Source: Dictyostelium discoideum | Taxonomy: Eukaryota | Length of the DNA: 64,000 nt | Assembly (NCBI GenBank): GCA_000004695.1 | Contig: CM000154.2 | Coordinates: forward strand, 672,001-736,000 | Direction: 5' to 3' | Shown: in pieces, positions 5,716 to 40,452 of the stretch | Numbering within the stretch: the first letter of the stretch is position 1 | Layout of the letters: the number at the start of each line of letters is the position of its first letter | Translations under genes and position numbers: made by a program | Notes under the pieces: generated by a model | Seen by the model: the letters and a program-made list of their open reading frames with translations, nothing else | The model's database searches: none | What the model was told of the DNA's origin: nothing

Positions 5716-6399
5716 ATGTATAAATTCTACTCAAAAATTTTACAAAACACAATTAAAAATAGTCATTTATTATTTTCTACAATAAGTTATTGCACTCGTT
5801 TTAGCACATCTCATGAATGGGTTAAAATGTTAAATAAAGGAAATATTGCAACTATTGGATTCTCAAGTTTTTCATCTGGATTTGTATTATTTTTTTTTTC
5901 AAGTTTAGAAATTTTTTTTTTTTTTTTTTTTTTAACTAATTTTATTTGTTTAAAAAAAAAAAGATAGGTAAATTTAATAATATAAAATTACCAACTGTTA
6001 ATTCTTATTGCAAATTAAATGAACCAATTGGATTAGTTGGATCACCAGATTCAACTAAAGAAGTGCTCCAATCTCTGGTAAATGTATTGAAGTAAATAAT
6101 GAATACTCAAAGAACCTAATTTAATTATTGAAAGTCCAGAAAGAAAGGGTATGTAATAAAAAAAGATAAAATTCATAAAAATAATAAATAATTTTTTACA
6201 AAGAGTTACTAAAATTATTTTTTTATATTTTTAAAAAGGATGGTTGGTAAAAATTGAAGTTGATAATCATGAAGATTTTGAAAATTTAATGACTAGAGAA
6301 GAGTATCAAAACTTTTTAAACAATAAAGTTGGTGGTGATATTAAGGATAGTGGTGAAAATATTGACAGTGGAATCCCAGGAACATTAATCTTAGGTTAA
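5716..6399 (+). CDS. Glycine cleavage system H-protein-like paralog (copy a), splicing unresolved, possible pseudogene
   Basis: Coding segments are 5716..5883 (…FCTRFSTSHEWVKMLNKGNIATIGFSS), 5964..6077 (IGKFNNIKLPTVNSYCKLNEPIGLVGSPDSTKEVLQSL), about 6103..6148 (ILKEPNLIIESPERKG) and 6239..6399 (WLVKIEVDNHEDFENLMTREEYQNF…*). The second and third segments are +1 out of phase, with no canonical GT-AG path joining them. Confidence 0.45.
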
Positions 6400-6741
6400 T
6401 AAAAAAAAAAAATTTGTAAACAATTCCACAAAAAAAAAAATTTGTAAACAATTCCACAAAAAAAAAAATCTAAAAAAAAAAAATCTTAAAAAAAAAAAAA
6501 ATTTCTTTAAAATAAAAAGAATCTCAAAAAAAAAGTAGTAAAAAAAACATTTTAAAAAAAAAAAATGTCTCACAAAAAAACATTTTCAAAAAAAAAAAAA
6601 AAGTTTGTTCACGTTTTCAAATTCACCATTTTTTTTTTTTTTTTTTTTTTTTTTTTTGTTTTTTTTTTTTTTTTTTTTTTATTTTTATTTTTATTTTTAT
6701 TTTTATTTTTTAACCTCTTATAGATATATACTTTTAAAAAA

Positions 6742-7484
6742 ATGTTAAAAACCTTAAGATTTGGAACAAGAGCATTCGGCCAAAATTTAAATATTGCCAA
6801 AAGAAACTTTTGTACTAGATACACAAACGATCATGAATGGGTCACTTCTCTTGGTTCTCAAAATTATAGATTGGGTATTACCGATTTTGCCCAAAAACAA
6901 GTAAGTATATTTCAAATATTTTCATAAATTTTTTTTTTTTTTTTTTTTAAGTTATTATAACACATTAATTAACCATTAAAAAAAAAAAAAAAAAAAATAG
7001 TTAGGTGATATTGTCTTTGTTGAAATACCACAAATTGGAGCAACATTATCTCAAGGTCAACCAATAACAGTAGTTGAATCAGTTAAAGCAGCTAGCGATA
7101 TCTATATTCCAATGGATGGTTCAATTACTACTGTAAACCAAGAATTAGAAAGTTCACCAGAGTTAGTAAATGAAGAACCAATGGGCGATGGTAAGTTTTT
7201 TTTTTTTTTTTTTTTTTTTTTTTATATTATTTAGTTAAAATAATTTATATTAATTACAATTACAATTATTATTATTATTATTATTATTATTATTATTATT
7301 ATTATTATTATTATTATTATTATTATTGTTATTATTATTATTATTATTATTATTATTTTTTTTTTTTTTTTTTTTTTTTCAAACACAAAAAGGTTGGATT
7401 GTTGAGTATAAATCAAGCAAAACTGATCAATTCCAAAGTTTAATGAATAAAGCCCAATATGATGAATATATTAAAGAACATTAG
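6742..7484 (+). CDS. gcvH: Glycine cleavage system H protein (copy b, canonical lipoyl-lysine motif)
   Basis: Exons are 6742..6900, 7001..7190 and 7393..7484, with GTAAGT donors at 6901 and 7191 and AG acceptors. The protein reads …FCTRYTNDHEWVTSLGSQNYRLGITDFAQKQ|LGDIVFVEIPQIGATLSQGQPITVVESVKAASDIYIPMDGSITTVNQELESSPELVNEEPMGD|GWIVEYKSSKTDQFQSLMNKAQYDEYIKEH*. Intron 2 contains (ATT)n. Confidence 0.85.
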
Positions 7485-7686
7485 AAACATTGTTTTTTCC
7501 ACTAATTTTTAATTTAGGATAATGACCTAAAAAAAAAAAAAAAAAAGATCAAAAATAATATGATCAAAAATAAAAATAGAAAAAAGATATTTGTTAACAT
7601 ATTATATTTTAAATAGAAAAATCAAAAATGAATTGTTTTTGTTATTTTTTTATTTTTTTTTTATTTTTTTTATTTTATTATTATAT

Positions 7687-38938: not shown

Positions 38939-39020
38939 ATTAATAAAATAATAAAAAAAAAAAAAAAAGAAAAATCTATACAAATAATTATTTGTTTTAT
39001 TTAAATTTGAATTTTTATTT

Positions 39021-39650
39021 TTATTTATAATCAGTATTTTCACAATAGTGAGCATACTCTTCTTCAGTCATTAAATGATTGGTTTGAAATGGTTCATTAA
39101 TTTTTAATTCAATTGTCCATGAATCTTGGTCATTATTAAAAAATAATGAATTTGATTTTAATGGTAATTTTGGTTTAATCTTTGTTGTTGTTGTTGTTGT
39201 TTTCGTTGAAATTGTTGTAGTTTGTTGATTATTAAATTTATTATTAACTTTTGAAACTATACCAGATAATGGTGATTTAAATTGAATATTTTCTTCTTCT
39301 TTTGTCCATATAGATAGAAATGGTTGATTTAACCTTATTTTATCATTTATTTTTGGTAATTTAATTTTTAAGATTTTATTAAATTCATTATTTACAATAT
39401 CTGATACATAATTAGTAATACCAATTGTTGCAAAATCTTTATTTTCTGAAATTTTAATCCATTGGTGATTTGGTGAATATTTTAACTTTTTATTTCTATT
39501 ATTATTATTATTATTATTGTTATTATTATTATTATTATTATTATTATTGTTTTTATTATTAATAAAATTTCTAATAAAGAATAAATTATTAAAGTTATTC
39601 CTAAATATTATATTATTATTTATTATTTTATTTGATATTATTTTGTTCAT
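39021..39650 (-). CDS. Glycine cleavage H-protein-like paralog (copy d, poly-Asn/Thr inserts)
   Basis: Single exon. Motifs …KYSPNHQWIKISENKDFATIGITNYVSDIVNNEFNKILKIKLPKINDKIRLNQPFLSIWTKEEENIQFKSPLSGIVSKVNNKF…DQDSWTIELKINEPFQTNHLMTEEEYAHYCEN are collinear with the H-protein. Confidence 0.65.
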   Translation of the reverse strand: MNKIISNKIINNNIIFRNNFNNLFFIRNFINNKNNNNNNNNNNNNNNNNNNRNKKLKYSPNHQWIKISENKDFATIGITNYVSDIVNNEFNKILKIKLPKINDKIRLNQPFLSIWTKEEENIQFKSPLSGIVSKVNNKFNNQQTTTISTKTTTTTTKIKPKLPLKSNSLFFNNDQDSWTIELKINEPFQTNHLMTEEEYAHYCENTDYK

Positions 39651-39960
39651 TATTTTTGTTTATATTAAGAAAAACAAAAAAAAAAAAAAAAAAAAAAAAA
39701 AAAAAAAAATTTAACTTTGAACAATAAAAAAAATATATTCCTTTTTTTTTTCCCTTTTTTTTTTTCCTTTTTTTTTTTTTCCTTTTTTTTTTTTTTTTCC
39801 TTTTTTTTTCCTTTTTAGTAATTTTTTTATTTTTAATTTTTAATTTTTTTTTTTTTTTGAGATTTATATCTTTTTGTAAACCAAAAGTTGGATTTTAATT
39901 ATTAATTTAATTGAGGGTCTTTTTATTTTTTTATTTTAATTTTTATTTTTTATTTTTATT

Positions 39961-40452
39961 TTAAATTTTAATTATTTTATTTTTACAATAATTATCATAT
40001 TCATTTTTATTCATTAAACTATTAAAATCATTTATATTTGAAAATTTTATTTTACATAACCAACCCTTTGACATTGGTGATGAATTTATATAATTTGGAT
40101 AATCGAGTACATCTTGATTAATTGAAATCAATTTACAATTTCTTATTGGTGAATTTAAAAGAATTTGGTCAGAAATTGTATCTAAAGAAATGGTTAATGG
40201 TTCATCATCAACTTGATTTTCATCTTTTATTATTGGAAATTTGATATATAAAACATCATCAAATTTATTAATTGGGCCATTCTCTGTTAATCCTAATGTA
40301 CCAATAATAATATTATTATTATTATTATTATTATTATTACTATTATTATTATTATTAATTGAAATCCATAAATGATTTTTTGAATATCTTGTACAAAAAA
40401 ATTTATTTGAAAGACTTTTTCTTAAATTATTTGTTGTTTTGAACAAAAACAT
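39961..40452 (-). CDS. Glycine cleavage H-protein-like paralog (copy e, lipoyl-lysine position not conserved)
   Basis: Single exon: MFLFKTTNNLRKSLSNKFFCTRYSKNHLWISINN…IIIGTLGLTENGPINKFDDVLYIKFPIIKDENQVDDEPLTISLDTISDQILLNSPIRNCKLISINQDVLDYPNYINSSPMSKGWLCKIKFSNINDFNSLMNKNEYDNYC…. There is no Lys at the E-S-V-K position. Confidence 0.6.
   Translation of the reverse strand: MFLFKTTNNLRKSLSNKFFCTRYSKNHLWISINNNNNSNNNNNNNNNIIIGTLGLTENGPINKFDDVLYIKFPIIKDENQVDDEPLTISLDTISDQILLNSPIRNCKLISINQDVLDYPNYINSSPMSKGWLCKIKFSNINDFNSLMNKNEYDNYCKNKIIKI

Follow-up and report, generated by a model that had tools for sequence, protein, structure and literature searches.

Five glycine-cleavage H-protein paralogs of Dictyostelium discoideum, probably in three functional states: lipoylated carriers, cofactor-free H-like proteins under purifying selection, and a copy disrupted in the AX4-type lineage

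Five paralogous genes for the H-protein, the shuttle of glycine cleavage and the entry point of mitochondrial protein lipoylation, lie in a 64,000-nucleotide stretch of Dictyostelium discoideum DNA (assembly GCA_000004695.1, contig CM000154.2, positions 672,001 to 736,000 of the forward strand; hereafter the window, with positions counted from its first letter), and we think it probable that these paralogs, called copies a to e, have come to occupy three functional states: carriers (b and c), cofactor-free H-like proteins (d and e), and a copy (a) that is dead in the AX4-type lineage. Of this reading, family membership, residue states, the lesions of copy a, orthology, purifying selection and a restricted phylogenetic range are shown directly. 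The genes themselves were for the most part annotated already; what appears to be new is that three copies lack an in-register lipoyl-lysine, that d and e remain constrained after losing a cavity glutamate, that copy a is a pseudogene in the AX4-type lineage, and that the canonical gene, gcvH1, is the least constrained of the family.

The window is AX4-type sequence of about 22% GC, with coding poly-Asn and poly-Gln tracts and short AT-rich introns. We took a full-length match to Pfam PF01597 (GCV_H) at the gathering cutoff of 22.2 bits as the mark of the family, and all five copies score above it, with 85.4 bits for a (frame-repaired), 141.3 for b, 106.7 for c, 45.9 for d and 52.5 for e, the match of d consisting of two stretches split by an insertion. 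An earlier sequence-only reading of this DNA had proposed five such loci, and had named a failure of d and e in a hidden Markov model search as grounds for giving the proposal up; the scores of both copies bear the proposal out, and tblastn with all five proteins as queries finds GCV_H-like segments in the window at these five loci and at no others. The significant PDB sequence matches of the copies are solved H-proteins only. The gene models are as follows.

5716..5883, plus strand: copy a, exon 1 (DDB_G0287771), presequence and YCTRFSTSHEW, from the splice model.
5964..6148, plus strand: copy a, exon 2, frame-disrupted, from three-frame translation and DNA alignment to four intact orthologues.
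6239..6399, plus strand: copy a, exon 3, GWLVKIE... and a conserved C-terminal tail with the end ..GTLILG.
6742..7484, plus strand: copy b, gcvH1 (Q54JV8), exons 6742-6900, 7001-7190 and 7393-7484, canonical ESVKAAS.
37302..37832, plus strand: copy c, gcvH3 (Q54JU3), exons 37302-37468 and 37550-37832, IESTKTVAD, HEW kept.
39021..39650, minus strand: copy d, single exon, 209 amino acids, HQW, hairpin LSIWTKEEENIQFKSPLSG, from the open reading frame and the Pfam match.
39961..40452, minus strand: copy e, gcvH5 (Q54JU0), single exon, 163 amino acids, HLW, Lys-free hairpin PLTISLDTISDQILLNSP.

The hand-spliced models of the sequence-only reading stand for b and c, the introns of which are clean GT..AG, and for d and e, which are uninterrupted open reading frames; copy a requires two frame changes. 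The spliced product of b exactly matches EAL63533.1 / XP_637044.1, "Probable glycine cleavage system H protein 1, mitochondrial", and matches E. coli GcvH at 1.1e-33; copy b is the canonical glycine-cleavage H-protein. The spliced product of c is identical to EAL63542.1, "Putative glycine cleavage system H protein 3", and that of e to EAL63577.1, "Glycine cleavage system H-like protein gcvH5, mitochondrial"; the UniProt annotation already calls gcvH5 "H-like". The exact 209-residue product of d was absent from the protein collection searched, and we infer that d is "gcvH4" and that "gcvH2" is located outside the window. The gene family is thus already in the public annotation, where copy a is not recognised as an H-protein gene: its entry, "hypothetical protein DDB_G0287771" (Q54JV9), is a 115-residue model that reads through intron 1.

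The state of the lipoyl-lysine separates the copies. The relevant column is that of E. coli K64 (the Lys of ESVK) at the hairpin tip, which we located by HMMER pairwise alignment to solved H-proteins. Copy b carries Lys in register (ESVKAAS), and the Lys of copy c is in register with the lipoyl-lysine of 1zko. Copy a has Asp in the column, with the nearest Lys at +3 in an ungapped 21-residue hairpin, a Lys that is invariant across five genomes; copy d has Glu, with the nearest Lys at -1, in alignments that include the pea and mouse H-proteins; copy e has Ser opposite the lipoyl-lysine of 2ka7 and no Lys anywhere in the hairpin. A profile alignment built on 95 canonical sequences returns the same residues for a, b and c, and for e replaces Ser with Asp, still without Lys. 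The same alignment brings the Lys of d into the column, though only by opening a gap, a first point that tells against our reading, and the register of d is ambiguous by sequence alone. An acidic residue at -3 from the Lys is reported to be required for recognition by lipoyl/octanoyl transferases and ligases (10.1101/419234); this position is Glu in b and c, Gly in a, Trp in d, and in e either Asp (pairwise alignment) or a gap (profile alignment). A carrier lysine is therefore found in b and c only, with a and e lacking it and d ambiguous, and by the pairwise alignments three of the five copies (a, d and e) are without an in-register lipoyl-lysine. The sequence-only reading correctly restricted ESVKAAS to b and described the e hairpin as Lys-free, and the poly-Asn and Thr-rich insertions that it saw in d and e are there; its count of a single copy lacking the lipoyl-lysine was too low, and the Lys that it credited to a, c and d is in register in c, out of register in a and equivocal in d.

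These residues bear on one alternative, namely that a and d, like c, are lipoylated on a displaced Lys and act as alternative carriers, for example as lipoyl-relay donors, leaving e alone as cofactor-free. Lipoylation at such a re-registered hairpin, on the profile-aligned Lys of d or the invariant +3 Lys of a, is possible, and it too would count against our reading; in the E2 lipoyl domain, however, a Lys displaced by a single position is not lipoylated (PMC6270654 section 4.2), and in both copies the recognition Glu at -3 is missing along with the pairwise register. The Lys of d, moreover, is replaced by Asn in D. firmibasis, and d has also lost a glutamate of the lipoate cavity (see below), which copy a retains. 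At the level of the pathway, lipoyl relay must begin with the H-protein as acceptor (10.1101/419234), and the viability of a gcvH1 knockout (PMC7024701) implies a further carrier; this redundancy is nevertheless more simply attributed to copy c and to the sixth, canonical paralog that D. firmibasis possesses. On balance we regard lipoylation of a and d on displaced lysines as unlikely. Copy a is the most uncertain of the five, because its +3 Lys is invariant and its HEW motif retained, and it may be either a carrier with a shifted register or one more cofactor-free form. With its Lys, HEW and the Glu at -3 all in place, copy c is probably a second lipoylated carrier, and it is for c that the earlier suggestion of additional carrier or relay proteins may hold.

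A second residue of the carrier chemistry has been lost in d and e. The aminomethyl-lipoate arm of the E. coli H-protein is held by Glu-12 and Glu-14 (PMC7733448), and the E of the HEW motif is the equivalent of Glu-14. HEW is kept in copies a, b and c; copy d reads HQW in all species, with Gln in place of this Glu, and copy e reads HLW, HFW or HWW across species, with Leu, Phe or Trp. Copy d further has KLKYSPNHQW instead of the FCTRY-type motif, SW for GW, a poly-Asn tract in its presequence and, upstream of SW, a Thr-rich stretch of about 23 inserted residues, so the N- and C-terminal motifs that had been described as common to all five copies are shared in part, the exceptions being these two in d and the HLW of e. 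A carrier role for d and e is unlikely, because e is Lys-free, the Lys of d is out of register or absent, and the arm-docking Glu is gone from both.

Despite these losses, d and e appear to be maintained. Orthologues with DNA were available from a wild D. discoideum strain, D. cf. discoideum, D. citrinum, D. dimigraforme and D. firmibasis, and the open reading frames of d and e are each intact in six genomes, five of them not of AX4 type; orthologues of c come from four of the five non-window genomes, with none found at the syntenic site of D. dimigraforme, and after correction of two annotation artefacts all recovered copies of d, e and c are intact. Ratios of nonsynonymous to synonymous substitution (dN/dS), estimated pairwise by NG86 on ungapped codons with the neighbouring GST gene as a control, are 0.17-0.33 for d, 0.16-0.41 for e, 0.04-0.35 for c and 0.23-0.43 for a outside the AX4-type lineage, compared with 0.02-0.24 for GST, and none of 300 bootstrap replicates reached a dN/dS of 1 or more for a, c, d or e. 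Conservation within d and e is concentrated in the fold: 72-85% of residues are invariant in the hairpin and core blocks, compared with 6-23% in the presequence and the low-complexity inserts. On these estimates d and e are not decaying and remain under purifying selection despite the loss of the arm-holding Glu.

The paralogs are also old relative to the species compared. In a neighbour-joining tree every paralog forms its own cross-species clade (bootstrap 88-100%), and branching within the clades matches the species order; all of the duplications must therefore be older than the split between D. discoideum and D. firmibasis, and the family appears to have expanded before D. discoideum, D. 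citrinum, D. dimigraforme and D. firmibasis diverged. The phylogeny that the sequence-only reading had called for, in order to see whether the copies are lineage-specific duplicates, thus places them before these species, with the e type confined to a narrow group. Indeed, when a profile of the e clade was run against 1.84 billion cluster representatives, its own cluster scored 348 bits and the next 66.5 bits (the copy a clade and ordinary H-proteins), and no e-type orthologue was recognisable among them beyond this group.

Several features of individual genomes were noted in passing. The poly-Asn tract of copy e has about 15 residues here (39961-40452) and about 50 in the wild D. discoideum strain (L006 4103-4699), and the Thr-rich insertion of copy d differs in length and sequence in every genome. 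The public model of copy e in D. firmibasis (L008 9033-9822) contains a spurious intron that swaps the C-terminus for poly-Asn, and a public model in D. cf. discoideum (L011 6001-7386) fuses e and d into a 287-residue product. D. dimigraforme (L009 10001-20157, and L010) carries an inverted duplication, e-d-GST-tubulin followed by tubulin-GST-d-e, less than 2 kb from a contig end and with no copy c between GST and tubulin, which is either a real palindrome or an assembly artefact.

The best reading of d and e, judged on the residues lost and the constraint kept, is that they are neofunctionalised, cofactor-free H-like proteins, one of the outcomes that the sequence-only reading had listed. We propose that d and e, while holding no lipoate themselves, would bind a partner that ordinarily recognises the H-protein, and would then function as a regulator, decoy or adaptor. 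This partner might be one of the P, T or L proteins or an enzyme of lipoyl assembly (octanoyltransferase, LIAS, amidotransferase). Partner binding seems the most economical mechanism because the former hairpin surface of both proteins stays conserved. The cellular setting would be compatible: the N-terminal extensions of all five copies, of 22-57 residues, contain 4-9 Lys or Arg and no Asp or Glu, which is consistent with mitochondrial import, and the GcvH1 presequence is experimentally mitochondrial (PMC7109396). From these features we infer a mitochondrial location for a, c, d and e, just as the absence of lipoylation is deduced from the residues described above and the partner-binding role from conservation.

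Alternatively, d and e might have taken on a role outside both lipoate and glycine metabolism, with the beta-sandwich reused as a scaffold for another ligand or partner. Both of the residues specific to carrier chemistry are lost, d has acquired its 23-residue insertion and the SW substitution, and the fall from 348 to 66 bits outside the narrow clade suggests a lineage-specific innovation in e; on the other side, the former hairpin and the segments flanking it count among the best-conserved stretches of both proteins, a pattern that suits retained recognition by H-protein partners, and both genes have stayed in clusters with true H-protein genes in the different species and have extensions that resemble mitochondrial presequences. 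We therefore hold an unrelated function to be quite improbable. That a, d and e are simply decaying duplicates, functionless pseudogenes, is very improbable, and for d and e already refuted at the sequence level, for although copy a in the window is twice frameshifted and truncated, d and e have variable poly-Asn and Thr-rich tracts and several copies are mis-modelled by public pipelines, the frames of d and e are uninterrupted in all six genomes with dN/dS values similar to those of the neighbouring GST, their conservation sits in the fold and not in the inserts, and copy a is intact and constrained beyond the AX4-type lineage.

Decay, which had been suggested for the extra copies in general, has thus befallen copy a, and that in the AX4-type lineage only. 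Aligned at the DNA level with the orthologous exon of four other genomes (the wild D. discoideum strain, D. cf. discoideum, D. citrinum and D. firmibasis), exon 2 of copy a is seen to have lost 4 bp between 6063 and 6064 and 1 bp from the A-run at 6102-6103. Without repair, the product is 99 amino acids long and ends at a premature TAA at 6093-6095. Three-frame translation of exon 2 gives DSTKEV, APISGKCIEVNNEYSK and EPNLIIESPERKG by frame and leaves no room for an intron, and the position of the intron after exon 1 is orthologous in the same four genomes. In these, that is in the wild strain and three other species, copy a is intact, with 162-172 amino acids, and has a conserved C-terminal tail of about 25 residues. 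The lesions are not an artefact of a single assembly, because the 684 bp of the locus recur unchanged in a second assembly, GCA_054883475.1, which itself differs from the window at intergenic homopolymers. A public model of copy a in that second assembly has 156 amino acids and requires a 43-nt intron and a 14-nt micro-exon; we enumerated all GT..AG models of the locus that yield this 156-residue product, and the sole recognisable one needs this same pair, so we set it aside as an annotation workaround rather than legitimate splicing. Taking disabling mutations and/or a dN/dS near 1 as the criterion for a pseudogene, copy a in the window is the only one; d, e and copy a elsewhere have intact open reading frames and omega values of 0.16-0.43. 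With these lesions, copy a is a pseudogene of the AX4-type lineage only; elsewhere the gene is conserved and constrained.

At the other end of the family, the canonical gcvH1 is, by the same measure, the least constrained member. Its dN/dS of 0.36-1.02, against orthologues in four genomic regions (L003, L004, L005 and L008), is the highest of the family, the bootstrap upper bound for AX4 against D. citrinum is 1.23, and its dN is the highest apart from that of copy a. Low dS resulting from codon bias may contribute to this weak constraint, or redundancy with copy c and a sixth paralog may. The gcvH1 mutant is viable, and human GCSH restores the cannabidiol sensitivity that it has lost (PMC7024701); copy c, as a second lipoylated carrier, would help to explain this viability. 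The sixth canonical GCV_H gene, which we call X, was found in D. firmibasis (L008 15033-15621), where it encodes ESVKAVSE and groups with b (bootstrap 91.5). There is no counterpart of X in the window, and it is probably the equivalent of the named AX4 gene gcvH2. In D. firmibasis all six GCV_H genes lie within about 10.6 kb (L008 9033-19652), in the order e, d, GST, c, tubulin, X, old-yellow-enzyme, a, b, and the two clusters of D. discoideum, about 30 kb apart, are rearranged relative to this arrangement.

Besides the gapped alignment of d and the conceivable lipoylation of re-registered hairpins mentioned above, several further points weigh against the scheme of carriers, cofactor-free d and e, and a dead copy a. 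The dN/dS values are pairwise Nei-Gojobori estimates from a genome of about 22% GC, and YN00 gave nan for many pairs. The AlphaFold2 models of e (pLDDT 62.3) and d (pLDDT 40.6), built from 13-sequence alignments, are too poor for hairpin geometry, even though Foldseek matches of the low-confidence model of e are H-proteins only, which re-confirms the fold. The partner-binding mechanism of d and e is deduced from conservation alone, and searches of the literature and supplements turned up no results on how a, c, d or e are expressed, where they are localised, whether they are lipoylated or what they interact with. Finally, an association between the two losses outside Dictyostelium, which in itself speaks for the scheme and in which the HEW Glu is missing in 14 of 15 Lys-less non-fragment proteins among the best hits of the e profile compared with 19 of 123 Lys-bearing hits (Fisher p = 2e-9), comes from a biased sample, as the query profile itself lacks both residues.

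Elsewhere in the window, two large open reading frames on the plus strand (22753-27162 and 44695-49476) both contain the PRT6_C domain of UBR-type N-recognin ligases, at 26.6 and 50.3 bits; in the other species one PRT6_C gene is located beyond copy e and an FNIP-repeat gene, which suggests that the pair is a local duplication in D. discoideum. Three stretches of higher GC (17907-20300, 52797-54812 and 56625-60020) are conserved housekeeping genes, for an EF-2-type elongation factor, an arginyl-tRNA synthetase and a CYFIP/FragX_IP homologue, and are not mobile elements, and a tRNA scan found no tRNA genes in the window.

D. discoideum gcvH1 has been used to model the action of cannabidiol and one-carbon metabolism, and in the gcvH1 studies that could be searched it is treated as the H-protein with its paralogs unmentioned; full-text searches by gene name and accession likewise turned up nothing on the paralogs. 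Experiments on gcvH1 need to be read with the knowledge that the knockout is viable, that the gene appears to be the least constrained of its family, and that the Lys-bearing copy c lies about 30 kb away. The loss of copy a in the AX4-type lineage is likewise a caveat for the use of AX4 as "wild type" in this pathway, and Lys-less copies maintained by selection would provide a tractable system for the study of the H-protein fold without its cofactor.

Compared with the canonical H-protein (GcvH/GCSH, PF01597; E. coli 3a8i, pea 1hpc, human 8ugo), all five copies have the same full-length domain; a, d and e differ in having no in-register Lys, d and e in having no Glu-14 equivalent, d in its Thr-rich insertion and SW, and a in its added C-terminal tail. 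A described analogue is GcvH-L of S. aureus and S. pyogenes (5a35), encoded in the SirTM/LplA2 operon, which is likewise a divergent second H-paralog with a role outside glycine cleavage and is weakly matched by copy c and by the AlphaFold2 model of copy e. GcvH-L, however, is lipoylated and works as a lipoyl carrier (PMC12440151), whereas d and e have no usable Lys, and its operon is bacterial, with sirtuin and macrodomain neighbours that are absent at the Dictyostelium locus. In the literature that we searched, no Lys-less H-like protein was found, lipoylated GcvH-L being the only H-like protein described. Aquifex aeolicus GcvH1-5 and the sHdr LbpA offer a precedent for five H-paralogs in one genome with divergent substrate recognition (10.1101/419234; PMC10052474; PMC6067878); those proteins are described as lipoate-binding, whereas the Dictyostelium expansion is eukaryotic, recent and partly Lys-less.

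A further comparison is offered by sporadic Lys-less GCV_H proteins in which the lipoyl-lysine and the HEW Glu have been lost together, as in Sporodiniella umbellata (KAI9259290.1) and on a marine protist contig (L012); the Lys-less outsiders among the e-profile hits include a Mucorales fungus and this contig with its tandem pair. The contig, from an unrelated eukaryote sampled by Tara Oceans, carries two divergent GCV_H genes in tandem (2453-2950 and 3186-3686), both with HQW and at least one without the lipoyl-lysine. None of the Lys-less outsiders shows a specific affinity to d or e over canonical H-proteins, and the losses therefore appear to be independent. It is a tentative and rather doubtful generalisation, but one that these cases invite, that H-like proteins without the Lys and the Glu-14 equivalent might be recurrent, convergent cofactor-free "pseudo-carriers", mimics of the apo-H-protein that would bind and tune the lipoyl-assembly enzymes or P, T and L, with d (gcvH4-like) and gcvH5 as tractable examples and AX4 as a natural null for a third such paralog, copy a.

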